NCBI GenBank assembly: GCA_964386355.1
Contig: CAYLQQ010000002.1
Location: 45,374-109,373 of the forward strand
From: an uncultured Pseudomonadales bacterium
Lineage (GTDB): Bacteria > Patescibacteriota > Microgenomatia > UBA1400 > UBA1449
Reading direction: 5' to 3'
Length of the DNA stretch: 64,000 bases
In this document: positions 1 through 21,810 of the stretch, one piece after another
Numbering within the stretch: position 1 is the first letter of the stretch
Layout: every line of letters begins with the position of its first letter
The notes under the pieces: generated by a model
Database searches by the model: none
Told to the model about the DNA's origin: nothing
Seen by the model: only the letters and a program-made list of their open reading frames with translations
Translations under genes and position numbers: made by a program

Positions 1-465
1 TGCCCAAATAATGCCAACAATATCAAAACTCGTTGTTATGAAAGTGATCGCTTCAGTATGGACGGGATGGACTGCAAATATAAGCCCAGTAAATAGTGCT
101 AGAACCTTGTCATTTGTAAGCTGCAATGCAAGTTTATATACAAGCCATGTACAGATAAAATGGATAAAAATGGCAAATACATGGTAATAAATAACGTTTT
201 GGCCAAATATATACTGAGTGCCTGCATAATATACGCTTCTTAGGGGCCTATAGGTTCCAACATGAGCTTTAGGTACCTGTCCAAGCATGAGTGATTTGAT
301 ATCTGCAGGCGGTTTGATTTCCTTCCAGTCAATTATAAAATCAGGATCATCTCCCACAAAGCCATTTAAAAACGTATTGCTATACGGTATACATACTGCA
401 ACTAAAAGAACCAAGAATGCGTTACCCACAAACTTGCGGAAACGTGTGTAAAATGCAGTTTTCAT
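1..465 (-). CDS. N-terminal part of a polytopic GT-C-type (PMT/ArnT-like) glycosyltransferase; the rest lies outside the window
   Basis: My own minus-strand translation from the ATG at 463-465 reads MKTAFYTRFRKFVGNAFLVLLVAVCIPYSNTFLNGFVGDDPDFIIDW...FAVHPVHTEAITFI. It shows an N-terminal TM helix, a 'FVxDD' first-loop motif and further hydrophobic helices, as in GT-C enzymes. The ORF runs off the window edge, so it is absent from the ORF track. Confidence 0.5.
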   Translation of the reverse strand, partial: MKTAFYTRFRKFVGNAFLVLLVAVCIPYSNTFLNGFVGDDPDFIIDWKEIKPPADIKSLMLGQVPKAHVGTYRPLRSVYYAGTQYIFGQNVIYYHVFAIFIHFICTWLVYKLALQLTNDKVLALFTGLIFAVHPVHTEAITFITTSFDIVGIIWA

Positions 466-1349
466 ACGATTGGAAACGAGTTTGTGGTTATGGCGTACAG
501 GGTGCAGCTACTTATCAATAATATCATATTTAGCCAGTACCTCTTTACAAACAAAGAAAAACGCATTTTGTAGATCTGTTTTTTTATATCAAATACAAGC
601 ATGATGATAACTAAGCCGATAATTACCCCAAGTACTAACTTAGTAGAGTTGAAATAATTACTTGAAACATTTGATACAGGGGGATATGTTTGAGATGTTT
701 GATTTACAATGACTGCTTGTTGTGAATTGATCCAAGCTAGTTCTTCATCAGAAAATGGCGTAGCATAAAGCATGACTACAAGTATGCTACTTTTTCCATT
801 GATATTTCCCTGTATTGTCGCAATACCAGCTTGGGTAAACTTATCGTTTAAAATATTTGCTCTATGTCCAGGAGATTGCATCCAGGCTGTGACAAGGTCT
901 TCTTCCTTATAATAGTCTTTTCCCAGATTTTCACCCGCGTATTTATATACGTATCCTGCTTTTGTGATAAACTGCCAGGGTGTCTGACTGTTGGGAGATA
1001 AGTGGTCCCAATAATTGTTCTGTATCATGTCATTGGCTTTTAGTAGAGCAGCCTGATTAAGCTTGTTGTCGATTTGGAAATTTTGAAGATTGTACTGAGT
1101 ACGCTGTTGGTTCACAAGTTCGACTATTTGTGATGACTCAAGATTGAGAGCAATACCTAATACCGGCGAGTATGAACCAACTGATCTTGAGTATAAAAAA
1201 ATCTGCACGGTAATAATGAATAATAGGCATATATTACAGAGCTTTGGCATGCTATGGTATTTATTGAAGCTATCTATTAGCTTTGGTATAGTAAACTTAA
1301 ATTTGTTCATAGCAACTACTATTAAACTGCAGCAAAGTAAAATTAGCAA
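462..1349 (-). CDS. Membrane-anchored CAP/SCP (YkwD-like) domain protein
   Basis: The central region ...LVNQQRTQYNLQNFQIDNKLNQAALLKANDMIQNNYWDHLSP...YAGENLGK...VTAWMQSPGHRANILNDKFTQAGIA... matches the CAP-domain pattern (HxxP, GENL, SPGHRxN). Hydrophobic segments flank it at both ends. The true start is probably an internal Met (MNKFKF or MPKLCN). Confidence 0.65.
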   Translation of the reverse strand: MLILLCCSLIVVAMNKFKFTIPKLIDSFNKYHSMPKLCNICLLFIITVQIFLYSRSVGSYSPVLGIALNLESSQIVELVNQQRTQYNLQNFQIDNKLNQAALLKANDMIQNNYWDHLSPNSQTPWQFITKAGYVYKYAGENLGKDYYKEEDLVTAWMQSPGHRANILNDKFTQAGIATIQGNINGKSSILVVMLYATPFSDEELAWINSQQAVIVNQTSQTYPPVSNVSSNYFNSTKLVLGVIIGLVIIMLVFDIKKQIYKMRFSLFVKRYWLNMILLISSCTLYAITTNSFPIV

Positions 1350-1352
1350 ATT

Positions 1353-1886
1353 ATGGAATCTGACTTTTTGGACAAGCTACTTATTGTGCTCCTGATAACT
1401 ATACTACCTGTTAGCTTTTTTATTGCCTCCAATGCTCAAAAAAAATATGAATTAGAGCAAAAAGCACAAATCGAAAAAGAACAAGTGGCAAAAGTAACAC
1501 AAACAGTTGAACAGCTACGGGCGCGTGATGCTATTTCAATGCCTGAGATAGAAATAGATCAGGTATATTATGCTACTGAATCGAGTAAATTGGTCGTTAC
1601 GGGAAGAGCACCAAAGAAAAATACAGTGGTTATGGTATCAACTGTTTTTTTACAAGGATTAAAGGATGATAAGGAGGCAAGTGCATCGGTAAAAACAAAA
1701 TCAACACCGAATGTTCTGGGACAAGCAGTTGATGTTGTGGCTATTGAAACGGATGCAAATGGTGACTTTACGTTTGTAAAAAAAGTTGACGAAGAACAAG
1801 CGGGACTAGTTGATGTGCGTTTTGATCAAGATAAAAGTAGTGCTTCAGTCCAGTATGATATAAATACACAAAAGCAGGTATTTTAA
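1353..1886 (+). CDS. Hypothetical membrane-anchored protein
   Basis: 177-aa ORF with an N-terminal TM segment (LLIVLLITILPVSFFIA), a coiled-coil-like stretch and a beta-rich C-terminus. No family recognised. Confidence 0.45.
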   Translation: MESDFLDKLLIVLLITILPVSFFIASNAQKKYELEQKAQIEKEQVAKVTQTVEQLRARDAISMPEIEIDQVYYATESSKLVVTGRAPKKNTVVMVSTVFLQGLKDDKEASASVKTKSTPNVLGQAVDVVAIETDANGDFTFVKKVDEEQAGLVDVRFDQDKSSASVQYDINTQKQVF

Positions 1887-1894
1887 AAGGAGTA

Positions 1895-4150
1895 TCAATA
1901 CTCCGGAAGGATATTATAAACAATTGTTCCCTCGTATAGATCAGATGGCTGAAGATAATTTACCTCTATTGCATAGCTTACATAAACCGTTTTTTCTTCA
2001 GCTTCTTGTGAGGACATGACGCTGTGTGAGATGGTGCTTAAAGGACCAAATTTTGCTGATGCATTTGACCACCCCTCCACTCTTGTATCAGATGTATTTA
2101 CGCCCACCCAGCCCGTATTAACGTTCCGTACTATGCCATTTGGTGCTGACCATATTTGTGGGGTTTGCCATGTGACAGAAGTTGCGGCAAATTCATCAAT
2201 ATTATTATCGGGGTAGTTCCCCTGCATTTGATTATACAGTTTGACGCTAACATCATAGCCATAGTCTGTATTGCTGTTTACCGTCAGCTTGTGAGATCCG
2301 AACTTCGGTACGCCAACACTGAGATTACCGAATGGAAGGGTAGTGTGGGTTGTGTTTATATTTGTTGTAATTCCGTTGTTTGAAGTTCCTGTAGGTACAC
2401 CTTCGATAGCAAAAGATAAGCTAGGAGTAGCTCGATGGTATATATCAAATGTTTGTCCATCACTTTGTACTGCTGAAAATGATTGTAGAAGCAAGAGATC
2501 TGAATATATGGTTTGCTCAATGGGGTATGTTGTATAGTCGCCTGCGGTTTTATTGATTCGGATGTAGTACAGAGGATGTCCACCATTTACGGTTGATTTA
2601 GTCCATTCATTCGGAACAGTATAGTACACATTTCCAGCACTTGTAAATGTGCTAGCTCCTGAGTTGCTATTAGATATTGCAAGGGTAGACCAGGTATCAC
2701 AAGGAGTATTGATATCCAAGTTTGAGCCGCAGTAAGACCAAACGGTTATAATACCAGAACCTGCACCTTTGGTTTGTAGTTGGGTATTTACACCGCTAAA
2801 CTGCGTGTGATTACCCAGGTAAAGGTAATCATTAGAATTGTCAAAAATCTGGTAGCTGCCCTGATCAAAACTGGCATTATCTTGACTATCAGCCAAGTAC
2901 TCATTTGTATCAGATGCCAAGCCACCTCTTGCCAGCTGTTTCCAGGTGTTTGAGCTGTCATAAAACCAAGCTTGTGAAAATGGTATTAAATTGGCATTAT
3001 AATCTGTATTGATCGTACGGTTTGTGCCTTCGATAGAGAAATTGGTTGGTACATTGCTTGTGCGCCAGTTTCTAAATTTGAATATAGGGGCATATCTTGA
3101 GTACGTTTCCCCATCCAAATTAAAAGAAATTATATTGTTTGAAGTTATTAGCGGGTAACTGTTTTGGGTTTGGTTAAAGTAGTCGCTTTCTCCTGTATTG
3201 GTAAACTCACTAGCAGAACTCCAGGCTGAACCTACAGATATTTTGCCAAATAAGCTGTCTGGTTGCCATAAATCTACAGCATAGCTTTTTGCTTCATTAC
3301 CGCTTAAGCTATTATCGTCAGTAATCTGAAAAACATAAGTATACGTATATGACTGTCCTCCAGAAAGACTATCATCAGTAATCAAACCGGCTGTAATTAC
3401 ATTTTCATCATTCTGGTATAAAAATTCATTATTTGGGAAAAAGCTGGGTACTTCTAGGGCATGTATCATGTAATCATTATCAGTACCGGTAGCTGGGTCA
3501 GAACCGGTGAGTGTTAGGCTAATCCCAGGAGCTGTGTATGTAATGTCAGCCACGCTCTGAATAGCTGCGCTTGGTGTGACGGTACCAGGAGCTGTATCAT
3601 GATCAGAAATAAAAGCATTTTCATCAAATAAGCTTGGTGCAAACGAAATGTAAGGTCCAGTCATTCCAGTACCAGCTGTGGATGAGCTAAAGGCACCATG
3701 CACCACAATCCTATCGGGATATATGGTATAGATTTGGGTATATTCTCCATCATTACTAGAACCGCAAGCTCCGTCTGTAAAATCATAGAGATCCCCGCTT
3801 ACTGAGATGACAATTCTTGTTTGAGTAGATTCCAAAAGGTGTATTGAAGCATTACTTTCACAAAACATGCTGTTTGTATCTCGTGTGACTAAACCCATTC
3901 CATATAACCGATTTGAAGTGCTACTAGTATCGATAATATTAGTGCTGCTTGAGCTGGGAATAACTAAGCTCGATAGTACTCCCCCGAGATCGCTCCTAAA
4001 CGTTGCTTTCCAGCTCGGGGTGGAATTACTGTTAACAACAATTGTGGTTGCAGTTATAGAGTCTACGCTCACTGATGCGGCATATACTTGTTGAGTGCAG
4101 GTCAGAAAGGTGAACGATATGAGAAATAGAAAGATACATGTTAATCGCAT
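1895..4150 (-). CDS. Large secreted surface protein with a C-terminal domain paralogous to the neighbouring 369-aa protein (WxL-like, tentative)
   Basis: Sec signal peptide (MRLTCIFLFLISFTFLTCTQQVYA/AS) and a Ser/Thr/Asn-rich beta-type composition. The last ~185 aa align with the C-terminus of the 4229..5338 product (TLPFGNLSVGVPKFGSHKLTVNSNTDYGYDVSVK...NTGWVGVNTSD...YVSYAIEVNYLQPSDLYEGTIVYNILPEY). Confidence 0.7.
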   Translation of the reverse strand: MRLTCIFLFLISFTFLTCTQQVYAASVSVDSITATTIVVNSNSTPSWKATFRSDLGGVLSSLVIPSSSSTNIIDTSSTSNRLYGMGLVTRDTNSMFCESNASIHLLESTQTRIVISVSGDLYDFTDGACGSSNDGEYTQIYTIYPDRIVVHGAFSSSTAGTGMTGPYISFAPSLFDENAFISDHDTAPGTVTPSAAIQSVADITYTAPGISLTLTGSDPATGTDNDYMIHALEVPSFFPNNEFLYQNDENVITAGLITDDSLSGGQSYTYTYVFQITDDNSLSGNEAKSYAVDLWQPDSLFGKISVGSAWSSASEFTNTGESDYFNQTQNSYPLITSNNIISFNLDGETYSRYAPIFKFRNWRTSNVPTNFSIEGTNRTINTDYNANLIPFSQAWFYDSSNTWKQLARGGLASDTNEYLADSQDNASFDQGSYQIFDNSNDYLYLGNHTQFSGVNTQLQTKGAGSGIITVWSYCGSNLDINTPCDTWSTLAISNSNSGASTFTSAGNVYYTVPNEWTKSTVNGGHPLYYIRINKTAGDYTTYPIEQTIYSDLLLLQSFSAVQSDGQTFDIYHRATPSLSFAIEGVPTGTSNNGITTNINTTHTTLPFGNLSVGVPKFGSHKLTVNSNTDYGYDVSVKLYNQMQGNYPDNNIDEFAATSVTWQTPQIWSAPNGIVRNVNTGWVGVNTSDTRVEGWSNASAKFGPLSTISHSVMSSQEAEEKTVYVSYAIEVNYLQPSDLYEGTIVYNILPEY

Positions 4151-4174
4151 ACAATGATGATAACAAAGCTAATC

Positions 4175-4205
4175 TAAAAAAACACCCTCTCGTTGAGAGG
4201 GTGTT
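4175..4205 (-). terminator. Intrinsic terminator downstream of the 369-aa surface protein gene
   Basis: On the minus strand: ACACCCTCTC-AACG-AGAGGGTGT followed by a T-run. This is a perfect 9-10 bp GC-rich stem. Confidence 0.75.
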
Positions 4206-4228
4206 TATCTAATCCGTTCTAGAAATGT

Positions 4229-5338
4229 TTAGTAGGTAGGCAAGGCGTTGTAGTACAGTATTCCTGTGTAGGTATCAGCTGGCTGATACACATTTACCTC
4301 TAATGCATAACTGACATAATCAGAAGCACCTCCGTTATCTGAGACTAAACTCTTCATAACAGTTGATTCAGTAAGATCCGAAACTCCTGCAAATTGTGCA
4401 GTATCGTCTCCAGTCCAGTTTTCTACTTCATTATCTGATGTGTTGTATCCTACCCATCCAGTGTTTGTGTTAGCAGCATTACCAGTAGGTTCAGCCCAAA
4501 CTGAGTGGCTTCCAACGTGTGGGAACGGGTCAATATTGTTGGCACTATATACTCCGGTCATGGGAGTAACCATCTTAATAGATACTGTATAACCAGCCTG
4601 TGTGTTTGTGGTCACGGTCAGTTTATGAGCAGCATATTTGGGTGTGCCTGCAGTCAAAGCTCCAAATGGCAGAGTATTATAAGAGGATGACACTGACGTT
4701 GTAACGCCATTATGTGCCTCATTATTTGTCACACCATCCACAACAAATGTGAAGGTAGCATCGACACGGGCAGTCACGCTAACTTGCTCAACAAAAGTGA
4801 TTGATGCAACAGCAGAATCTATAAGATTATTGGCATCAGTGCTTGCATCACTATATGTACCTACTTTTACGTAACATGTGCCGGTTGATGAGTTACCAAC
4901 TGCATTACATCCTGAAATAGCAGGATTGGTAATGTTATTGATTGTAAAAGAAAATAATTGGCCACCTACTCCGAATGTTTGACCAGTAGAGTTAAGTTGA
5001 AAATAGTTTGACCCAGCAGAGCCACCTAAAGACCAAGTACCATCTATTCCGACGGGACTTACTAAAGCGTTAGTTGAAACTCCTGCTAAACCTAGACCGG
5101 TTGGTATAGTACAAGCTCCTCCCCACGTAGGTTCCTTACAGTAGGTAACTGTTATATTTTTGTAAGTTCCTGCAGTACTTGTAGTAAATTCAAATACATG
5201 ACTAGTCGAAACAGCAGGGCGTGGATCTGATAGTTTTGCTTTAAAACTTCGTAAAATACTTGCAGCACCCACCGGACGGACTAATAAAAGTCCTAAAACG
5301 AGTGCCCCAAAAAATGATAATAAGCGGGCAGTTTTCAT
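4229..5338 (-). CDS. Secreted surface protein, probably abundant (candidate surface-layer or fibre subunit); WxL-like C-terminal domain (tentative)
   Basis: Signal peptide MKTARLLSFFGALVLGLLLVRPVGA/AS. A strong SD (GGGGAGGTGAACAT-ATG), a TTGACA promoter and its own terminator surround the gene. The C-terminus ...YVSYALEVNVYQPADTYTGILYYNALPTY resembles the terminal motif of WxL-type cell-surface domains, with W replaced by Y. Confidence 0.65.
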   Translation of the reverse strand: MKTARLLSFFGALVLGLLLVRPVGAASILRSFKAKLSDPRPAVSTSHVFEFTTSTAGTYKNITVTYCKEPTWGGACTIPTGLGLAGVSTNALVSPVGIDGTWSLGGSAGSNYFQLNSTGQTFGVGGQLFSFTINNITNPAISGCNAVGNSSTGTCYVKVGTYSDASTDANNLIDSAVASITFVEQVSVTARVDATFTFVVDGVTNNEAHNGVTTSVSSSYNTLPFGALTAGTPKYAAHKLTVTTNTQAGYTVSIKMVTPMTGVYSANNIDPFPHVGSHSVWAEPTGNAANTNTGWVGYNTSDNEVENWTGDDTAQFAGVSDLTESTVMKSLVSDNGGASDYVSYALEVNVYQPADTYTGILYYNALPTY

Positions 5339-5405
5339 ATGTTCACCTCCCCTCTCAAACGGTCTATAAAAGTATACCGTTTAAGCAAATTAATAGTATG
5401 TATCC

Positions 5406-5435
5406 ATGTTAGTAAGTTTGATGAGCTGTTGTCAA
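5406..5435 (-). promoter_or_regulatory. Sigma70-like promoter for the 369-aa surface protein gene
   Basis: The minus strand reads TTGACA-18 nt-TAACAT. A 5'-UTR hairpin (AAACGGT...ACCGTTT) and a strong SD follow. Confidence 0.4.
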
Positions 5436-5482: not shown

Positions 5483-7180
5483 ATGATAGAAGATATTAAA
5501 ATTGTATCAGGATCAAGTATCATTTATACTCAGAGCATGGTACTTTCTGACGATGCATTACTAGAACAGTCACTCCAGGATATTGGGATTAAATCTTACA
5601 AGGATCCCTTTGGTATGCCTGACACGTTTATATATGATCCCATAAAACCCATACAAGAAAAAGAAGGCAGCAAACGGCAAGTCCGCTTTACCCAACTGCT
5701 GAACTATTCGTTTCCAGAAGAGATAGAAGGTGGAGTAGCCGAGGTAGGGGAGGTGATATATATCGGCGATGGGGTGTGCCGGGTGGTCGGCTTATCGAAA
5801 GCTGAAATCGAAGATGTAATCAATGTTAAAACAGGTAAGGGTTGGGAAAAGGCACTCATCTTAGGTATAGAAGATACCCATATTGAGTCAGTTGTTCTTG
5901 GAGATTATTCAAATATCAAACAGGGCGACCAGGTAATCGCAACTAACTCAAGGTTAAAAGTGCCTGTTGGTAAAACTCTGTATGGCCGGGTAATTAGTCC
6001 TCTCGGAGTGCCTATAGATGGTAAGGGCAAGATTGAACCCGAAACGTACCGGGATGTGGAATTTCCAGCCCCATCAGTTATGGAGCGTGAGCCCATTTTT
6101 GAACCCCTAAAAACAGGTGAGATGGTTATAGATGCTACGATCCCTATCGGTTTAGGCCAGAGAGAATTGGTGATAGGAGACCGAAAAAGCGGGAAGAGCA
6201 GGTTTGCTATCGACATCATTTCAAACCAAAAAGGCAGAAACATGATCTGTGTATATGTTGGAGTTGGAATGCAGGCTGCTAAGGCAAAGGCTACGCTTGA
6301 GCTTTTGGAATCTAGAGAGGCCATGGATTACACCATCATGGTTGTATCTACTTCTGATGATCCTCCGTCACTACAGTACATCTCTCCATATGTAGGTACT
6401 GCCATAGCGGAGCATTTTATGTATGCAGGCAAAAATGTCTTGATTATTTATGATGATCTATCAAAACAAGCAAAAGCTTATCGGCAGGTTTCATTGCTGT
6501 TGAAACGCTCGCCAGGTCGAGATGCATATCCTGGTGATATCTTCTTTTTACATTCCAGGCTACTTGAACGCTCATCAAAAATGCATCGCAAGCTGGGAGG
6601 AGGTGCCATTACTGCCCTACCCATTGCCGAAACCCAGTCCGGTGATATATCTGATTACATCATCACCAATCTCATGTCTATTACAGATGGGCACATTTAT
6701 CTGGATGCAAATATGATGCATGAGGGAATTTTACCGGCAGTAAACTCACAAGCCTCAGTTTCCCGTATCGGGAGTAAGGTCCAGTCAAGTTTGCTAAAAA
6801 AGGTAGGAGAGCTTGCTTCGAGAGCTCTAGCCCGGTATGCAGAGTTAAAATCATTTGAAACGATTAACACCGAAGTTGCAGAGGAAACACTTCGGGATAT
6901 ACGGAGAGGCAAAAAAGTAAAGGAAATGTTAGCTCAAGTATCATCAGTAAATTATTCTACAGATGAGATAGTAGTTTTGCTCCATTTAGTAACTTCAGAT
7001 AAGCTGGAGATGATCGATCTTACAGACCTGTCTAAGTTTAAGCTGGAATTCCTGGAATACTATAGAAAAATTGTGACTCCTGAATTTAGAGGTAAATGTG
7101 AATCGTCAAAAGACCTCAAAGATATCGATGGGGAAGTGTCTGTTATGCTGGATAGGTTTTTAAAGCAACGTACAAGTTAG
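5483..7180 (+). CDS. atpA: F-type ATPase F1 alpha subunit with an N-terminal extension
   Basis: P-loop GDRKSGKS, followed by ...LIIYDDLSKQAKAYRQVSLLLKRSPGRDAYPGDIFFLHSRLLERS...ALPIAETQSGDISDYIITNLMSITDGHIYLD, all classic alpha-subunit blocks. The beta-barrel motif GEVIYIGDGVCRVVGL starts near residue 89, against about 30 in canonical alpha. An alternative start at M45 is possible. Confidence 0.93.
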   Translation: MIEDIKIVSGSSIIYTQSMVLSDDALLEQSLQDIGIKSYKDPFGMPDTFIYDPIKPIQEKEGSKRQVRFTQLLNYSFPEEIEGGVAEVGEVIYIGDGVCRVVGLSKAEIEDVINVKTGKGWEKALILGIEDTHIESVVLGDYSNIKQGDQVIATNSRLKVPVGKTLYGRVISPLGVPIDGKGKIEPETYRDVEFPAPSVMEREPIFEPLKTGEMVIDATIPIGLGQRELVIGDRKSGKSRFAIDIISNQKGRNMICVYVGVGMQAAKAKATLELLESREAMDYTIMVVSTSDDPPSLQYISPYVGTAIAEHFMYAGKNVLIIYDDLSKQAKAYRQVSLLLKRSPGRDAYPGDIFFLHSRLLERSSKMHRKLGGGAITALPIAETQSGDISDYIITNLMSITDGHIYLDANMMHEGILPAVNSQASVSRIGSKVQSSLLKKVGELASRALARYAELKSFETINTEVAEETLRDIRRGKKVKEMLAQVSSVNYSTDEIVVLLHLVTSDKLEMIDLTDLSKFKLEFLEYYRKIVTPEFRGKCESSKDLKDIDGEVSVMLDRFLKQRTS

Positions 7181-8164: not shown

Positions 8165-11973
<3,809 letters not shown>

Positions 11974-12062: not shown

Positions 12063-12323
12063 ATGGCAGAAAACAAACCACAAGTTCACGTGATTATTGT
12101 TGATCCTGATAAGGTAGTATATGAAGGTGATGCGTTACGAATATTTGTCCCAGGAAAGATCGCAGAGCTTGCTTTGTTACCTGAACATACTCCTTTGTAT
12201 AGCGAGCTTACCGCAGGTCCAGTTATTGTAGAGGAAGTATCAGGAGCAAAGCAGGAAATTAAAATAGACGGGGGAGTGGCAAAAATGCAAAATAATGAAC
12301 TGCATATATTAATTGGATACTAA
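12063..12323 (+). CDS. atpC: F-type ATPase epsilon subunit, short form (beta-sandwich domain only)
   Basis: VHVIIVDPDKVVYEGDALRIFVPGKIAELALLPEHTPLYSELTAGPVIV... matches the epsilon N-terminal domain. The protein ends at 86 aa, without the C-terminal helical hairpin. It sits downstream of atpD. Confidence 0.8.
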   Translation: MAENKPQVHVIIVDPDKVVYEGDALRIFVPGKIAELALLPEHTPLYSELTAGPVIVEEVSGAKQEIKIDGGVAKMQNNELHILIGY

Positions 12324-12376
12324 TATTGGTTCATTTTAATTAATGACAATATTCAATTACTGACTATAATTTTGAT

Positions 12377-13018
12377 ATGAAAAAAATTACCTTACTTATA
12401 TTTGCTTCGGCAGTTCTTGTTTCTTGCACGTCATCAACAGATATAGCATCTATAGATAAAAAACTCGAGTCTTCTTCAAAATCACTTGGCAATGTCAATA
12501 TGGTAAACGATATTACTAATCAAAATCAGGTTAAAGGGGAGCAAACAGTTGCCGATGATTCGCAGGATATTGAACTTTCCAGAGATGACCAACGAGCTAT
12601 AGCCGAAAATGAAAAAAAAGGATCAGGGCAAGCAAAAACAGTAAAGCCAAGCAGCAAACCACAGACAAGCATGGACCCAATAGATAAAGATACAACTACA
12701 TTACAAGTTCAGGAAAAACAACCTGGAACAGGAGTTGAAGCAGTTGAGGGAAAAATGGTTTTGGTTCATTATGTAGGAAAACTTACAAACGGTTCAGAAT
12801 TTGACAATTCATACAAGCGCGGTCAACCGATCAGTTTTACATTAGGAGCTGGTCAAGTGATCCAAGGTTGGGATATTGGGATAGCTGGCATGAAAGTTGG
12901 CGGAAAACGACACTTGGTTATACCACCTCAACTTGCATATGGTAATAACTCACCAACTCCGGATATCCCCAATGGCGCAACACTTATATTTGACGTAGAG
13001 CTGGTTGATGTAAAATAA
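12377..13018 (+). CDS. FKBP-type peptidyl-prolyl cis-trans isomerase, lipoprotein
   Basis: Lipobox LLIFASAVLVSC, and an FKBP core VHYVGKLTNGSEFDNSYKRGQPISFTLGAGQVIQGWDIGIAGMKVGGKRHLVIPPQLAYG. Confidence 0.9.
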   Translation: MKKITLLIFASAVLVSCTSSTDIASIDKKLESSSKSLGNVNMVNDITNQNQVKGEQTVADDSQDIELSRDDQRAIAENEKKGSGQAKTVKPSSKPQTSMDPIDKDTTTLQVQEKQPGTGVEAVEGKMVLVHYVGKLTNGSEFDNSYKRGQPISFTLGAGQVIQGWDIGIAGMKVGGKRHLVIPPQLAYGNNSPTPDIPNGATLIFDVELVDVK

Positions 13019-13075: not shown

Positions 13076-13993
13076 ATGATTGTTCTAAAAAACGTTTCTA
13101 AAAAATTCGATCAAACCCAGGTAATATCAGATCTGAATCTTACCATCAAAGAGGGGGAAATTGTTGGCTTGCTGGGACCAAACGGGGCTGGAAAAACCAC
13201 AACAGTACGGATGATTGCTGGTGTATTACCACCGAGCAAAGGAAGTGTTCATATCAACGATAAAAATCTCTTTGATGATGAGACACAAAACGGTATTCAT
13301 ATAGGGTATTTACCGGAGAATAATCCCGTCTATGATGATATGACTGTTGAGGAGTTTTTAAACTTCTGGTCAAATATTAAGGGAATGGATAAACAAGATG
13401 CATTCCAAAGAATTACTGATGTTATAAAGCAAGTTGGTCTTGGTGATGTGTATTATCGACCGATTGCGGAGTTATCAAAAGGGTATAGGCAGCGGGTAGG
13501 TATTGCACAAGCAATTCTTGATAAACCAGACATCTTGCTGCTGGATGAGCCGACTGAAGGACTTGATCCTAACCAGCGTCGTGATATCCATGACCTTTTA
13601 ACTTCACTTGGAAAGAAACGGACAGTAATTATCTGTTCTCATGTACTCTCAGAAATCACCAGAATGTGTAACCGTATCATTATTATTAACAAAGGCACTG
13701 TAGTGGCTGATAGTCCCGTTGAGCAAGTAGGGAATTTATCTGGTGGAGTTGTGTATGAGATGATGGCAAAGGGAAAAGATGTTGAGAAAGGTTTACGAAC
13801 CATTGAGGGGGTAATTAAGGTTGATGTGATGGATGCAACTAAGCCTGCAAAAACCTATCTTATCACAAGTAATTCAAAACAAGATTTAAGGCTGTCGCTT
13901 TTTGAGATGGCTAAAGATAAAAACTGGCAGTTATATGAACTTCTAAAGAAACAGGAAGATTTGGAGCAAATCTTTGCTCAAGTTACAAAATAG
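13076..13993 (+). CDS. ABC transporter ATP-binding protein (GldA-like ABC-2 subfamily)
   Basis: Walker A GPNGAGKTT, signature LSKGYRQR, Walker B LLLDEPTEGLD. Confidence 0.9.
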   Translation: MIVLKNVSKKFDQTQVISDLNLTIKEGEIVGLLGPNGAGKTTTVRMIAGVLPPSKGSVHINDKNLFDDETQNGIHIGYLPENNPVYDDMTVEEFLNFWSNIKGMDKQDAFQRITDVIKQVGLGDVYYRPIAELSKGYRQRVGIAQAILDKPDILLLDEPTEGLDPNQRRDIHDLLTSLGKKRTVIICSHVLSEITRMCNRIIIINKGTVVADSPVEQVGNLSGGVVYEMMAKGKDVEKGLRTIEGVIKVDVMDATKPAKTYLITSNSKQDLRLSLFEMAKDKNWQLYELLKKQEDLEQIFAQVTK

Positions 13994-14025
13994 ACTAATT
14001 AGAATACATAGCAACAATAAATCAT

Positions 14026-16236
14026 ATGAATATTCGAAACATACTTACAATAACTAAAAAGGAATTTTTAGGCTTTATTAATTCTACAACGGCCTACCTG
14101 CTTATCGTCCCTTTTATCCTAATAAGTTTCTTTTTATACTTCAGGCAAGCATTTATCTCAAATCAGGCAAATTTACGAGCCTTCTTTGACTTTTTACCAT
14201 TTATACTCTTATTTCTTGCTCCGGCAATATCGATGCGAACGTTTGCTCAGGAACAACGTAATAAGACTCTGGAAGTGCTGTTCGCACATCCGGTTACGGA
14301 GCTAGATATTACCCTTGGGAAATTTTTAGGATCACTTGCTTTTTATGGCACTATGTTACTTGCTACGATCAGTTTGCCTATTACTATTTTGCTTTTTGCA
14401 AAACCTGATATGGGAGTGATTATCAGCCAGTACTTAGGTGCTTTATTTATTGGTGGAGCATTTTTATCAATTGGTATAGCCACATCGACGCTTGTCGCTT
14501 CTCAAGTATCGAGTTTTTTATTAGCGGCAGCAGTAAACTTTTTACTCATACTGGTCGGTTTTGACATTGTGCTTTTAAGTCTTCCATCTGCACTAGGAGC
14601 TTTTGTGTCACAGCTGGCAATACTTCCCCACGCATCCAACATTAGCAGGGGTGCACTGGATATGCGTGACTTACTCTATTTTGTGACTATCGTCGGAATT
14701 GCCCTTACAATTGCAACCATAAAACTATCTGCACGTAAGATTGCAGAAAGTCAGATTGCCCGCCAAAAACTGTACATGGCCTTAGGTTTGGTGGTTGCCT
14801 TTGGAGTGATTACTAACATTTTTATGTACAGCTATCCAATCCGTATTGATTTGACAACCAACAAACTCTTTACCTTATCAAAAGGGACCAGAACAACCAT
14901 TGGAAATTTGCCAGATTTAGTCACTATTACACTCTACTCATCAAATAATTTGCCTGGTACGGTTGAATCAACTGTCCGGCAAACCAAAGATGTGCTTCGC
15001 GATTATCACAGGTTAGCAAAAGGAAAAATAAAGCTTGTCGAGAAACATCCCGATATAAATCCTGAGGATAAAACAGCAGCTGTTAATGATGGTATACAGG
15101 AGGTGCAGTTTAATACACTAAGTAATAATGCCTTTGCAGTCCAAGCCGGGTATGTAGGTCTTTCTCTTCAGTATCTTGATAAGAAAGAGACCATTCCGTT
15201 TATTCAAAACGCATCAGAGCTGGAATATCAGTTAACACGTTTGGTTCGCAAAATGACTACAGACAGCTTGCCAATCTTAGCTCTATATACACAACCAACA
15301 ATTACCTACACAGGACAACAGGCAGCAATAAATACGCTTAGGTCGGTACTCAGGGATCAGTATGATATTCGAGATTTGGATCTATCCCAACCCGAAGCTT
15401 CTATATCAGGAAAAGCTGTTATGGTGTATGGCTTAAACTCCGCTATGGGAGCAACAGCATCAGCCAAGCTTAAAACGTTTATAGCAGAAGGTGGTAATGC
15501 TTTATTACTGCTCGACAATCACACAGTAAATCCTCAGCTTGGGACTGCCCCTTCTTATACGGTAGGTATTGAGGATATGTTGGCCAATGATTTCGGAATT
15601 ACTGTCAATCAGGATCTAGTATATGATCTACGCTTAAACGAAATTATTACTCTGCAATCGGGTAATCAGCAATACTTACTTCCATATCCGTTCTGGCTGA
15701 AATCTTTGCCTGGTGAATCTAAAAAAATACCATTAGGAACTATTGGGAGCGTGACTTTGGCATGGCCAAGCTCTTTTACTCTAACTCAAAAAGAAAATGT
15801 GGTGCAGGAGCAACTGCTTATTACCAGCAAAAATGCCGGTTCACAACAGGGAACATTTCAAATTGCTCCTGAAAAACTACAAGCTAGCGATTTTAAAGTA
15901 GACGGTCAAGAGAAACCACTAGGAGTATTTGCGTCAAATACGAAGAGCACACTAATCGTAATTGGAGATAGTGATTTTATTACTGATCAGTTTGTGCAAA
16001 ATGCTCCAGTCAATTTGCAATTTGCTAACTTGCTTATCGATACAGTTGCAGCAGATGAGATTATGGCAACCGTTACTCAAAAATCAGGAGATAATCCTAT
16101 ATTTATATTTGATAGCGCCTCGCAAGCACAACTGGTTCAATATGTAAATTTATTGGGAGTACCTATCGTAATTGGGGTATTTGGTGGCTGGTGGCTACTC
16201 AGGCGTAAAAAGATGTACCAGCGAACTTATAATTAA
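14026..16236 (+). CDS. Fused ABC-2 permease (GldF-like) and GldG-like periplasmic/auxiliary domain protein
   Basis: The N-terminal ~240 aa form a six-helix ABC-2-type permease. A large soluble region and a C-terminal TM (VIGVFGGWWLLRRKK) follow, as in GldG-family proteins. It lies directly after the ATPase gene. Confidence 0.65.
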   Translation: MNIRNILTITKKEFLGFINSTTAYLLIVPFILISFFLYFRQAFISNQANLRAFFDFLPFILLFLAPAISMRTFAQEQRNKTLEVLFAHPVTELDITLGKFLGSLAFYGTMLLATISLPITILLFAKPDMGVIISQYLGALFIGGAFLSIGIATSTLVASQVSSFLLAAAVNFLLILVGFDIVLLSLPSALGAFVSQLAILPHASNISRGALDMRDLLYFVTIVGIALTIATIKLSARKIAESQIARQKLYMALGLVVAFGVITNIFMYSYPIRIDLTTNKLFTLSKGTRTTIGNLPDLVTITLYSSNNLPGTVESTVRQTKDVLRDYHRLAKGKIKLVEKHPDINPEDKTAAVNDGIQEVQFNTLSNNAFAVQAGYVGLSLQYLDKKETIPFIQNASELEYQLTRLVRKMTTDSLPILALYTQPTITYTGQQAAINTLRSVLRDQYDIRDLDLSQPEASISGKAVMVYGLNSAMGATASAKLKTFIAEGGNALLLLDNHTVNPQLGTAPSYTVGIEDMLANDFGITVNQDLVYDLRLNEIITLQSGNQQYLLPYPFWLKSLPGESKKIPLGTIGSVTLAWPSSFTLTQKENVVQEQLLITSKNAGSQQGTFQIAPEKLQASDFKVDGQEKPLGVFASNTKSTLIVIGDSDFITDQFVQNAPVNLQFANLLIDTVAADEIMATVTQKSGDNPIFIFDSASQAQLVQYVNLLGVPIVIGVFGGWWLLRRKKMYQRTYN

Positions 16237-16253
16237 TCCTAGATGTGTAACAT

Positions 16254-17150
16254 ATGACAAATAAGGTTTTATCCCAGCTTACATTTCTGGTTGCATTTGT
16301 TCTGCTGATATTATTTGGCAGAAATCTTATAACCAGATACCAGCAACAACAGCCAAATGAGTATCAAAATGCGATAAAAAGCATTAAATCAGATGACATT
16401 GTTCGTATTGAGTTGACCAAAGCAAGTCAAGAGCTGGTTTTAACACGACAGGACGGTATATGGAGGATTGCATCAAAATCAGCAGATATCGCAAAAGTAA
16501 ACGAACTTATTGGAGCTTTACTACCTAAACAATCACCACAGCTAATATCGGAGAATACAGATAAATTTTCAGATCTTGAAGCTACTCAAGAAACAGGAGT
16601 TACTGTAAAGCTGATAACCCAGCAGGATGAAAAAGTATTTATAGTAGGTAAGGCAATAGATACAGTGCGGGCAGTCAAATACGAACCTTTAGAAAAAGTA
16701 TATGGCATTTCTTCGGTGCCAGAACTATCAATCCAGGCAAGCGATTGGCTTAATACAACCGTTGTCGATATTGATAGTTCAAACATAAAAAAGATTTCAG
16801 TGAGTGGTAAAGAGATATACTCACTCATCCAAACCGGAGATAGGCAATGGTCTTTTGAGGGTTCTGATGAAAAGGTTAATAGCGATGGAGTTACTACATA
16901 TGCATATAAATTTAACCCTTTAAAGGCCGATGGTATTGCCAGTGAAGATCAAAAGCAGTCATTTGATCTTAGTAGTGCGGGGTTTCGGGTTTCAATAACA
17001 GATACCAGTGATGTGAATACTGATCTTCAATTTAAACTTATAGACGATCAGTACATTATCAAGCGCTCAACTGACAATGAATATTTTATACTAGATAAAC
17101 CAACGGGTGAAAGTTTTGAAAAACAAAAATCCGGATTTGTATCCTCATAA
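16254..17150 (+). CDS. DUF4340-like accessory protein of the GldG-type ABC system
   Basis: N-terminal TM plus a repeated beta-rich domain. Its position downstream of the GldG-like gene is the usual DUF4340 context. Confidence 0.45.
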   Translation: MTNKVLSQLTFLVAFVLLILFGRNLITRYQQQQPNEYQNAIKSIKSDDIVRIELTKASQELVLTRQDGIWRIASKSADIAKVNELIGALLPKQSPQLISENTDKFSDLEATQETGVTVKLITQQDEKVFIVGKAIDTVRAVKYEPLEKVYGISSVPELSIQASDWLNTTVVDIDSSNIKKISVSGKEIYSLIQTGDRQWSFEGSDEKVNSDGVTTYAYKFNPLKADGIASEDQKQSFDLSSAGFRVSITDTSDVNTDLQFKLIDDQYIIKRSTDNEYFILDKPTGESFEKQKSGFVSS

Positions 17151-19929: not shown

Positions 19930-21810
19930 TTAATTATTTTTTACAAATAATCCAAGTATAGGCTTTTCTGTACTTTTAAAATCCTCGCTTTTCATCTGCA
20001 CTGACTGCGTGTTTGATCCGGCATTGAAGTTGATCCAGGCTTGCTCAAGTAAGCCTTCATCAACATAGGTCGGAATATTAAATAAACTTCCAAATGGCGG
20101 GACGGAACCGGGTCGTAAGCCCGTGACCTTTAGTAACGTATCCTTATCTACTAGAGCAACATCTTTAAATCCAGTTGCTTGCTTAAATGCTTTTAGGTCA
20201 AGTTTAGATGCAGCTGAGACAACAACCATGATGGGTTTGCCATCAGCCATACAAACCAAGGCTTTAGCACCGGATTCTATGGAAGTTCCTCTAGCTTGTG
20301 CGGCCTCTTCGCTGGTAAACACAGGTTTATGCTCGAATTTCTTGTACTCAACTTTTTCATTATCTAAGTAATTGCAGATCTGCTCAAAGATCGATTTAGA
20401 AGTAGTCTGTTTCATAGAGCGGATCTGAATACCCAGCTCTTTCATCTGTTCTTCTGAGATGGGGCTGGGGGCATCCATCACTGCCGTTCTACCTGTTGAG
20501 GTCATCGGGAAGGCAATTGCCTCTTTAAGAGAGCTTTGGTTACTTAATAGCATGACAAACCTGTCTAAACCCAATGCTAGACCACCATGTGGCGGAGTTC
20601 CAAGACGAAACGCTTCAAGCATATGACCAACTGATGCTTCAATTTCTTCTTTAGAATATCCCATTATCTCAAACGTTTTATAAAGAGCGTTTGGGTTATG
20701 TGCCCGGATAGATCCTCCACCCATTTCGTATCCATTACAAACAAGGTCATATTGTGTTGTGAGAATATTCTCAATATTTTTCCCTTCCAGATGATCGGCA
20801 ATAAACTCATCTTTAGGCTGAGAAAACGGGTTGTGAGTGAATGTCCAGCCGCTTTTACCGTCACGCACCTCGGCCACGTCTTCTTTATTTACTTTCTTGA
20901 AAAATGGAAAGTCTACTACCCAAGCAAAAGCTAATACTCCATCCTTCTTTTCCTGTTCCGTTCGGATATCAAACCTGTCTGCACCATAGGTTTTAATAGC
21001 TTCATCATAAGTAATTATGGGAAATTTCCCTTCTCTTAGTTTACCTCCTACAGCCAAGATTGCTGCTTTGGTAGCCTGTTCAACCATTTCCATTACGTCC
21101 TCTCGTTTGACAAAGGACATCTCCAAATCAAGCTGGGTAAACTCAAATCCCCGGTCAGCCCGCAGATCCTCATCGCGGATGCAACGGGCAATCTGGAAAT
21201 AGCGTTCAAAGCCGGCTGTCATCAAAAGCTGTTTGTACTGCTGGGGTGATTGGGGCAAGGCATAGAACTTGCCTGGTTGGAAACGGGAAGGAACCACAAA
21301 ATCTCGGGCGCCTTCTTTGGTTGATTTGGTCAGCATGGGTGTCTCGATCTCGACAAAATCATTGGCAAATAAAGACTTGCGGAACTCTTCGATGAGCTTA
21401 CTTCGAAGCCTGATTGCTTTTTGCAGACGCTCACGTCGAAGGTCCAGGTATCTGTATTTTAACTTGAGCTCTTCATCAAGTTGAGTGCCATCAGTATCTA
21501 TGGGGAAGGGTAGTTCTTTGCATTCATTTAACAGGCTAAATGATGATGCTTGAATTTCGATTGCGCCGGTAGGAAGGTCTTTATTTACCATTTGCTCGGG
21601 ACGGTTATTAACTATACCGACTACTTCAACCACATCTTCCTGACTGAGTTTTCCCATTTTTGAGTCGCCCACTACCTGCACCTTGCCCGATCTATCGCGA
21701 AGCTCGATGAAAACTAATTTGCCGTGATCGCGGACCGTATCAACCCAACCTTGTAGCAAGATCTCCTCACCAATCTTTTTAAATGTTTCAAGTGCGAGTG
21801 TGCGTTTCAT
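19930..21810 (-). CDS. aspS: Aspartyl-tRNA synthetase (bacterial-type core without the GAD insertion) fused to a C-terminal YbaK/ProX-like aminoacyl-tRNA deacylase domain
   Basis: OB-fold N-terminus (LQGWVDTVRDHGKLVFIELRDRSG), FYALPQSPQQYKQLLM, motif 2 YFQIARCIRDEDLRADRGFEFTQLDLEMSF, motif 3 GGLALGLDRFVMLL. The last ~155 aa (...KFEHKPVFTSEEAAQARGTSIESGAKALVCMADGKPIMVVVSAASKLDLKAF...LRPGSVPPFG...) fit the YbaK-family pattern. Confidence 0.9.
   Translation of the reverse strand: MKRTLALETFKKIGEEILLQGWVDTVRDHGKLVFIELRDRSGKVQVVGDSKMGKLSQEDVVEVVGIVNNRPEQMVNKDLPTGAIEIQASSFSLLNECKELPFPIDTDGTQLDEELKLKYRYLDLRRERLQKAIRLRSKLIEEFRKSLFANDFVEIETPMLTKSTKEGARDFVVPSRFQPGKFYALPQSPQQYKQLLMTAGFERYFQIARCIRDEDLRADRGFEFTQLDLEMSFVKREDVMEMVEQATKAAILAVGGKLREGKFPIITYDEAIKTYGADRFDIRTEQEKKDGVLAFAWVVDFPFFKKVNKEDVAEVRDGKSGWTFTHNPFSQPKDEFIADHLEGKNIENILTTQYDLVCNGYEMGGGSIRAHNPNALYKTFEIMGYSKEEIEASVGHMLEAFRLGTPPHGGLALGLDRFVMLLSNQSSLKEAIAFPMTSTGRTAVMDAPSPISEEQMKELGIQIRSMKQTTSKSIFEQICNYLDNEKVEYKKFEHKPVFTSEEAAQARGTSIESGAKALVCMADGKPIMVVVSAASKLDLKAFKQATGFKDVALVDKDTLLKVTGLRPGSVPPFGSLFNIPTYVDEGLLEQAWINFNAGSNTQSVQMKSEDFKSTEKPILGLFVKNN

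Follow-up and report, generated by a model that had tools for sequence, protein, structure and literature searches.

Two tandem genes encode secreted proteins with a common C-terminal domain

The DNA analysed here, hereafter the window, is a stretch of 64,000 nucleotides from contig CAYLQQ010000002.1, assigned to the Microgenomatia, and this work deals with two tandem genes near its left end that we relate to the Pam pilus system (PamA, PamB, PamT, PamE and PamC/D; NCBIfam models NF058581 and NF058579). The Pam filaments of Candidatus Mycosynbacter amalyticus, resolved by cryo-electron microscopy (cryo-EM), consist of the pilins PamA (55 kDa) and PamB (38.7 kDa), and are assembled by insertion of the linker of one subunit into the C-terminal domain (CTD) of its neighbour. 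In the same work, the two pilins were the second and ninth most abundant proteins of the cell, a serine of PamA carried extra density, the pam operon adjoined ATP synthase genes, PamC/D were proposed as membrane-anchored chaperones similar to PapD/FimC, and PamT as a tip protein without linker (bioRxiv 10.64898/2026.03.03.709456). The two genes of the window and the parts of their products are listed below.

4229..5338, minus strand: small Pam-type pilin gene (369 aa; mature protein about 35.8 kDa, pI 4.6)
5264..5338: signal peptide of the small pilin (aa 1-25)
4754..4789: linker of the small pilin, putative donor strand EQVSVTARVDAT (aa 184-195)
4232..4753: C-terminal immunoglobulin (Ig)-like domain of the small pilin (aa 196-369)
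1895..4150, minus strand: large paralogue gene (751 aa; mature protein about 79.0 kDa)
4079..4150: signal peptide of the large paralogue (aa 1-24)
2432..4078: N-terminal beta-rich modules of the large paralogue (aa 25-573)
1898..2431: Pam-type CTD of the large paralogue (aa 574-751)

The positions that an initial annotation, made from the sequence by eye, had given for the two open reading frames (ORFs) are exact. The homology that it had noticed between the two C-termini is far beyond chance, with 42% identity over 190 aa (BLASTP, E 2e-39), and defines a common C-terminal domain of about 180 aa. Each protein contains a single hydrophobic stretch, located at its N-terminus and followed by VGA-AS in the small protein and by VYA-AS in the large one, with no other hydrophobic segment elsewhere; these N-termini fit Sec signal peptides, as had been proposed. 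The two proteins share an acidic character and a high content of Ser, Thr and Asn. The survey of paralogues for which the initial annotation had called was performed with a hidden Markov model (HMM) of the CTD on the window and on locus L001, which is the window's own contig, matching the window exactly along 14,150 nt and reaching 8 kb past its left edge. In the 64-kb window and these 8 kb, only the small and large genes carry the domain.

The small protein is probably a divergent Pam pilin

A Pfam search gave nothing for either protein. In an NCBIfam scan, the sole specific family match of the small protein was NF058581 (CPR_Pam_pilin_C), which covers aa 221-369 and model positions 4-148 with an E-value of 2.8e-6 but a score under the cutoff of the model. 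The same model is matched by 32 of the 42 members of the small-pilin family, the best of them with an E-value of 2.4e-9. For comparison, we used a bona fide Pam set made of the proteins that score 54-183 bits on NF058581 (cutoff 55). Three proteins retrieved by the small-pilin family profile with E-values of 1e-26 to 1e-32 (P0207-P0209) score 163-183 bits on this model, and the highest-scoring one, P0207 (183 bits), aligns end to end with the small protein in BLASTP (26% identity, E 3e-9), the alignment taking in QVSVTARVDATFTF against QIQLSASVDETLTF. Profile-profile alignment with hhalign of the CTDs of the small-pilin family and of the bona fide Pam proteins gave 98.6% and an E-value of 9e-16 over 161 columns, including the linker.

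Species-representative genomes were then scanned with the bona fide Pam set, yielding 80 loci mostly titled Saccharibacteria or Saccharimonadales; Ca. Mycosynbacter amalyticus lies outside these 80 Saccharimonadia loci. The CTD HMM of the small-pilin family matches 78 of them, and its full-length profile matches 152 of their ORFs with a median coverage of 355 out of about 367 positions. In both groups, conservation is highest in the linker, whose consensus is TA.VD(P/E).(F/L)TF, and the search pattern of the locus finder was this very linker motif, [TNS]A[TS]VD[EP][TS][LV]TF, picked as the most conserved stretch. The named homologues come from Beckwithbacteria, Microgenomates, Roizmanbacteria and Saccharibacteria, the few otherwise titled ones (Acidoferrum, Pseudomonadales) being contigs of metagenome-assembled genomes, in agreement with the restriction of Pam pilins to the Candidate Phyla Radiation (CPR), or Patescibacteria.

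The AlphaFold2 (AF2) model of the small protein has a predicted local distance difference test score (pLDDT) of 91.4 and shows an N-terminal domain (NTD) of exactly nine strands (aa 30-183) followed by a second beta domain. Between the two, the linker (aa 184-195) is an unpaired coil in the monomer, and its sequence VSVTARVD displays alternating hydrophobic residues. This architecture agrees with the description of Pam pilins in the preprint (bioRxiv 10.64898/2026.03.03.709456). The protein also contains two pairs of cysteines, Cys67/76 and Cys144/155, of which Cys144/155 is at least 90% conserved in the family. Sequence searches of the Protein Data Bank (PDB) with the small protein and with the family profile returned nothing relevant, the copy searched holding no Pam structure. 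From these data, we take the small protein to be a divergent Pam pilin similar in size to PamB, belonging to the Pam pilin family over its full length. The earlier proposal that it is a major fibre subunit is borne out in so far as it is a full-length homologue of pilins shown by cryo-EM to form filaments.

The shared domain is not detectably a WxL domain

The initial annotation had likened the shared domain to the WxL cell-surface domains of Gram-positive bacteria and had suggested comparing it with the WxL, SCPU, TasA and DUF916 families. We tested the WxL assignment in three ways and reject it at the sequence and profile levels. The Pfam models for WxL, SCPU and TasA gave no match at E<=1 for the two proteins and 65 family members. 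Against a WxL profile built from 15 sequences of annotated plasmid loci, hhalign gave a probability of 0.2% for the CTD of this family and 2.6% for the bona fide Pam CTDs, the best local matches being the two motifs singled out earlier, which are not significant. The shared domain has Tyr at the would-be Trp positions and contains no Trp-x-Leu motifs. The outcome is thus negative for the shared domain; it is another protein of the contig, 320 aa long and described below, that proved to be a DUF916/WxLIP homologue.

A Foldseek search yielded a weak match only, to a chain of the CFA/I chaperone-tip adhesin complex (6k73_D, E 3e-4, TM 0.22), and no specific sequence or fold match to chaperone-usher pilins was obtained. 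On a Clavibacter plasmid (L006, 5269..5895), we observed an unannotated 208-aa protein beside a DUF916 gene; it is WxL-like (hhalign, 84.8%), lacks the second Trp and is unrelated to the Pam CTD. On this evidence, WxL-type clusters reach into the Actinobacteria, in a degenerate form.

The large paralogue carries unrelated modules in front of a Pam-type domain

On the large protein, the CTD HMM matches aa 574-751 (E 2e-64), and Pam-like sequence is confined to these last 178 residues. AF2 modelled the whole protein with a pLDDT of 78.9. A word-indexed protein search found two relatives of the large protein, and an exhaustive search found 489. Among 198 collected proteins, the CTD is present in 137 and sits at the extreme C-terminus in 135 of these; lengths range from 112 to 1,105 aa and are mostly of 300-399 aa. 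Giant proteins of up to 3,600 aa contain modules, in many cases repeated, that are homologous to the region of aa 31-572, and GT2 glycosyltransferase domains are found in some of these proteins. These N-terminal modules resemble phage-tail and carbohydrate-binding sandwiches, and no homologue of this region was found in the Saccharimonadia loci.

The linker differs markedly between the two kinds of proteins. In small pilins (n=105), the seven residues ahead of the (D)P anchor read VTVTAxV, with a column entropy of 1.2-2.1 bits. In large CTD proteins (n=32), the corresponding columns are essentially random (3.1-3.8 bits), and conservation starts from DPSLTF.

The two genes have very different expression signals

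The putative expression signals of the two genes are as follows.

5430..5435, minus strand: -35-like box TTGACA of the small pilin gene, kept at four orthologous loci
5411..5406, minus strand: weak -10 box TAACAT of the small pilin gene, 18-nt spacer after TTGACA
5354..5385, minus strand: 5'-untranslated region (UTR) hairpin AAACGGT...ACCGTTT, directly upstream of the ribosome-binding site
5344..5352, minus strand: Shine-Dalgarno (SD) sequence GGGGAGGTG of the small pilin gene, 5 nt ahead of the ATG
4173..4206, minus strand: intrinsic terminator 3' of the small pilin gene (12-bp stem, 3-nt loop, T-run)
4157..4162, minus strand: -10-like hexamer TATCAT of the large gene, 6 nt ahead of the ATG

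Four orthologous loci were compared (L001-L004), whose proteins share only 36-46% identity. The -35 box previously proposed is retained in all four, at -83 to -97 from the ATG, and it is because TTGACA is conserved across such divergent loci that a real promoter, with a 5' UTR of about 55-65 nt, is better supported. The -10 box is weak, however, and the number of promoter-like matches in the region does not exceed chance (14 observed versus 12.2 expected from shuffled sequence). The 5'-UTR hairpin, also noted earlier, does exist, but its significance is marginal (minimum free energy -13.6 kcal/mol, z = -1.96). The claims of a very strong SD and of a terminator proper to the small gene held up well. 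With an anti-SD duplex of -12.5 kcal/mol, GGGGAGGTG ranks first among the 54 genes of the window, most of which have no SD, and the SDs of the orthologues in L002 and L004 score -13.4 and -12.7 kcal/mol, respectively. A hairpin equivalent to the terminator occurs 3' of the small gene in the four loci, with a T-run in three of them.

The large gene has no SD sequence, ranking 47th of the 54 genes in this respect, so that its start looks leaderless-type. In the orthologous loci L002 and L003, TATAAT or TATACT stands at the spacing of its TATCAT hexamer. A TAnnnT hexamer is found 4-9 nt before the start codon of 19 of the 54 window genes, against a background of 12%, which suggests that leaderless-type starts are common in this genome and that the small pilin gene is a clear exception. 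Judging from the SD, the terminator and the leaderless-type start, the two genes appear to be transcribed as separate units whose expected outputs differ widely.

A homologue of DUF916/WxLIP proteins is encoded on the same contig

On the same contig but outside the window, a gene for a chaperone-like protein lies 6.5 kb past the large gene.

L001 18795..19757, about 4.6 kb beyond window position 1: 320-aa WxLIP-like protein

This protein has a signal peptide, two beta domains and a C-terminal transmembrane (TM) helix. It matches Pfam PF06030 (WxLIP_PGBD/DUF916) with 31.8 bits, for a gathering score of 27.3, and annotated DUF916 proteins of plasmids (tblastn, E 1e-10); the DUF3324 Pfam model does not match it. 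When it is combined with its CPR relatives, the group can be aligned by hhalign to the WxLIP proteins of Firmicutes along 220 columns (95.4%, E 1.7e-8). Its homologues lie directly downstream of Pam pilins in 76 of the 80 Saccharimonadia loci, and in all 33 loci of at least 20 kb, often as two copies. An HMM built from Firmicute WxLIP proteins alone detects these pilin-adjacent genes in 34 of the 80 loci.

None of the NCBIfam Pam models matched the chaperone-like proteins, and the 320-aa protein is likely the equivalent of PamC/D, as judged from the description given in the preprint and not from sequence. The text of this preprint makes no mention of WxL or DUF916 (bioRxiv 10.64898/2026.03.03.709456). 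Since the 320-aa protein is a WxLIP homologue and its relatives lie beside Pam pilins, the Pam and WxL systems have a partner protein in common, and their client domains gave no significant match to each other.

Genomic context

The two genes are flanked by the following features.

5483..7180, plus strand: ATP synthase alpha subunit (TIGR00962, 529 bits), divergent from the small pilin gene
1353..1886, plus strand: 177-aa protein (N-terminal TM helix, beta domain), convergent with the large gene

At each of the four orthologous loci, the pilin gene has the ATP synthase operon as its neighbour, the setting in which pam operons are typically found, and the small pilin is followed by a second CTD paralogue. 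The 177-aa protein has no family match in Pfam and NCBIfam, and its orthologue adjoins the large paralogue in L004 (33% identity, E 5e-27). Next to it, a secreted protein of the CAP/YkwD family (window 462..1349) is also kept beside the large paralogue in L004. Three proteins of the contig, one of 260 aa, the WxLIP-like one of 320 aa and a dockerin-bearing one of 412 aa, have orthologues in L003 and L004. In L003, these three orthologues form one unbroken run with two pilins, a Wzy_C membrane protein and cohesin-like proteins.

The 412-aa protein (L001 19842..21080), conserved in the cluster, is secreted and contains Ig-like domains and a C-terminal dockerin. In L003 (15916..18943), two proteins that match cohesin weakly come after the dockerin protein, and these genes may encode a cohesin-dockerin surface-anchoring pair beside the pilus genes. 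Between the pilin genes and the chaperone-like gene, L001 encodes a polytopic membrane protein with tetratricopeptide (TPR) repeats (13686..15443), and L003 has at the corresponding position a polytopic membrane protein with a Wzy_C (O-antigen-ligase-like) domain (13080..14885). Because extra density is reported on a PamA serine, such membrane proteins could be regarded as candidate pilin-modifying, possibly glycosylating, enzymes. In the bona fide Pam locus L005, a RelB-like antitoxin gene (12171..12437) lies between two pilin-plus-chaperone pairs and recalls the orphan MazE-like antitoxin of the Pam preprint (bioRxiv 10.64898/2026.03.03.709456).

Other features of the window were noted in passing. 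The ATP synthase alpha subunit has an N-terminal extension of about 84 aa, and a 796-aa polytopic membrane protein without family match is encoded between the ATP synthase gamma and beta genes (8165..10555). A GldA/GldF/GldG-like ABC transporter, whose permease and GldG-like part are fused (736 aa), is followed by a DUF4340 protein (13076..17150), and an aspartyl-tRNA synthetase of 626 aa (19930..21810) contains a YbaK/EbsC-type deacylase domain at residues 480-614. No rRNA gene is present in the 64-kb window.

A model for the pilus and alternative readings

Homology, architecture, genomic context and expression signals mark the two genes as a Pam-type pair, and we regard it as likely that the region encodes two Pam-type pilus subunits, namely a shaft pilin and a large minor subunit that would probably be located distally or at the tip. 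The small pilin would be exported by Sec, and its linker strand VSVTARVD would occupy the groove left open in a neighbour's C-terminal Ig-like domain, such insertion building, subunit by subunit, a linear filament. This donor-strand role of the linker is indirectly supported by its conservation, which is the highest of any stretch, and by the alternation of its hydrophobic residues, and donor-strand exchange would, by analogy, take place in this organism. The long 5' UTR, the top-ranked ribosome-binding site and the own terminator argue for a high output of the small pilin. The large protein would plug into the filament via the same groove-bearing CTD, with about 550 aa of beta-sandwich modules standing in place of the pilin N-domain, and would be a low-copy subunit presenting a host-binding module, analogous to FimH/PapG. 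A distal position is expected for it because the groove would be present without a donor strand, as in PamT and FimH/PapG, and its weak expression signals point to a minor subunit. The large protein is thus most likely a minor or tip adhesin subunit, and of the roles considered earlier for it, a tip, adaptor or variant subunit is still the best reading, given the absence of SD and of a conserved linker motif. Assembly would presumably be aided by the membrane-anchored two-domain DUF916/WxLIP-like protein, as the PamC/D equivalent. In this model, we infer the position and role of the large subunit as well as the actual abundance of the subunits.

Several observations weigh against a Pam-type shaft pilin associated with a tip subunit. 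The small protein scores 27.5 bits on NF058581, under the curated cutoff of 55, the large protein is not matched by this model, and Pam membership is argued from profile and transitive evidence, which is strong. PamT-, PamE- and PamR-like genes were not found in the 72 kb examined, and housekeeping genes such as PPDK separate the chaperone-like gene from the pilins. In addition, the large protein keeps an alternating F-x-I-x-H-R-A at the linker position, and might thus donate a strand and be a shaft subunit. Both proteins would then be shaft pilins like PamA/PamB, the 751-aa protein polymerising via its pre-CTD strand QTFDIYHRA and forming thick filament segments. Indeed, two pilins of unequal size each form long stretches of one filament in M. 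amalyticus, the alternating hydrophobic residues and the Arg are retained at the linker position in the large protein and in its 72%-identical orthologue, and the second CTD gene that follows the small pilin in the four loci encodes, in L003, a full pilin with NTD and CTD. We nevertheless consider such a two-pilin shaft unlikely, since the 32 large CTD proteins do not conserve the linker motif (column entropy of 3.1-3.8 bits, versus 1.2-2.1 bits for the 105 small pilins), the large gene lies without SD behind a strong terminator with a leaderless-type start, the small-pilin NTD HMM does not match the large protein, and aa 566-571 of the latter are modelled by AF2 as a strand within the monomer.

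The two remaining readings involve no filament. The shared CTD could dock on the WxLIP-like protein or on the wall in a WxL/Csc-type surface complex displaying binding modules. A DUF916/WxLIP homologue is indeed encoded on the same contig, WxL clusters combine a small and a large protein having a common C-terminal domain with a WxLIP whose strand is predicted to fill a gap (PMC10599100), and the WxL-like motifs pointed out by the initial annotation are the best local hhalign match. Such a complex is very unlikely, however, since the shared domain is not WxL by Pfam or by profile-profile comparison (0.2-2.6%), the full-length homologues of its family include filament formers resolved by cryo-EM, and the conserved donor-strand-like linker has no counterpart in the WxL model. 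As for the surface layer, which had been mentioned earlier along with the fibre, the small protein is acidic, Ser/Thr-rich and secreted, with very strong expression signals, as could be expected from the subunit of a two-dimensional lattice. This label is not the best description, since the full-length homology of the protein is specifically to the filament-forming Pam pilins, no S-layer family or SLH match was found in the Pfam and NCBIfam scans, and the presence of a chaperone-like partner gene on the contig also counts against it; we hold a lattice to be highly improbable.

Significance and comparison with known systems

Pam pili are abundant filaments thought to mediate host contact of a cultured CPR parasite and were recognised only in 2026, most Microgenomatia homologues having reportedly been missed by sequence searches. 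The locus described here is largely explained as a Microgenomatia-type pam pilin pair and thus belongs to a very recently described kind, of which it is a well-supported example from the Microgenomatia whose promoter, ribosome-binding and terminator signals are defined. Two aspects go beyond the published description, namely the CTD proteins that bear a cargo and the assignment of the chaperone-like partner to DUF916/WxLIP. Many large proteins whose N-terminal modules vary end in this assembly domain and are candidate host-recognition tips, and the DUF916/WxLIP link gives hints on how both the Pam and WxL systems may function and on the origin of the former. It is possible, although rather doubtful, that a single ancient system of monoderms has as its two branches the Pam pili and the WxL/Csc clusters found in Firmicutes and Actinobacteria, with a membrane-anchored DUF916/WxLIP chaperone-anchor completing an incomplete beta-sandwich by strand insertion. 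If so, Pam pili would not be a CPR-only invention, WxL proteins might be assembled, and even polymerised, by donor-strand complementation, and the 751-aa protein would represent a class of cargo-bearing subunits, widespread in Microgenomatia-like relatives, that join variable host-binding modules to the assembly domain of the pilin.

Among known systems, the locus resembles Pam in its paired cysteines, its two tandem pilin genes of unequal size, its adjacency to ATP synthase genes, its CPR-restricted homologues and the presence nearby of a gene for a membrane-anchored two-domain chaperone-like protein; in size, the mature small protein (35.8 kDa) is close to PamB (38.7 kDa). It differs from the Pam loci of Saccharimonadia as a divergent Microgenomatia-type branch, with about 26% identity and a score under the NCBIfam cutoff, and its CTD has insertions, for instance NTGWVG..NTSD. 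The second subunit, of 751 aa, has unrelated phage-tail- and carbohydrate-binding-like modules that replace the NTD, an architecture absent from the preprint. Moreover, the chaperone-like gene is 6.5 kb away with housekeeping genes in between, and PamT, PamE and PamR were not found in the 72 kb.

The comparison with the chaperone-usher pili of Gram-negative bacteria (Fim, Pap, Caf1) concerns the proposed logic, in which an alternating-hydrophobic strand of the neighbour, followed by (D/E)P and the first strand of the domain, completes an incomplete Ig-like domain. The donor segment of Caf1 reads TATATLV-EP-ARITLTY, and its counterpart here would be VSVTARV-DA-TFTFVV. The large protein would be the analogue of the two-domain adhesins FimH and PapG, and a terminator follows the major-subunit gene in both cases. 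Unlike in these pili, usher and outer membrane are both lacking here, the chaperone is membrane-anchored, an extra NTD is present, and the donor strand is an inter-domain linker instead of an N-terminal extension.

The WxL/Csc clusters of Firmicutes comprise a small WxL protein, a large WxL protein and a WxLIP with the organisation DUF916-DUF3324-TM (PMC10599100, PMC1534035), and an AF2 prediction places a strand of WxLIP in a gap of the WxL sandwich (PMC10599100). The locus shares with them a small and a large secreted protein with a common C-terminal domain, plus a protein with two Ig domains and a C-terminal TM helix. In contrast to these clusters, the client domain here is not detectably WxL and there is no LPXTG partner, and, unlike Pam pilins, WxL proteins are thought to bind peptidoglycan and not to polymerise.

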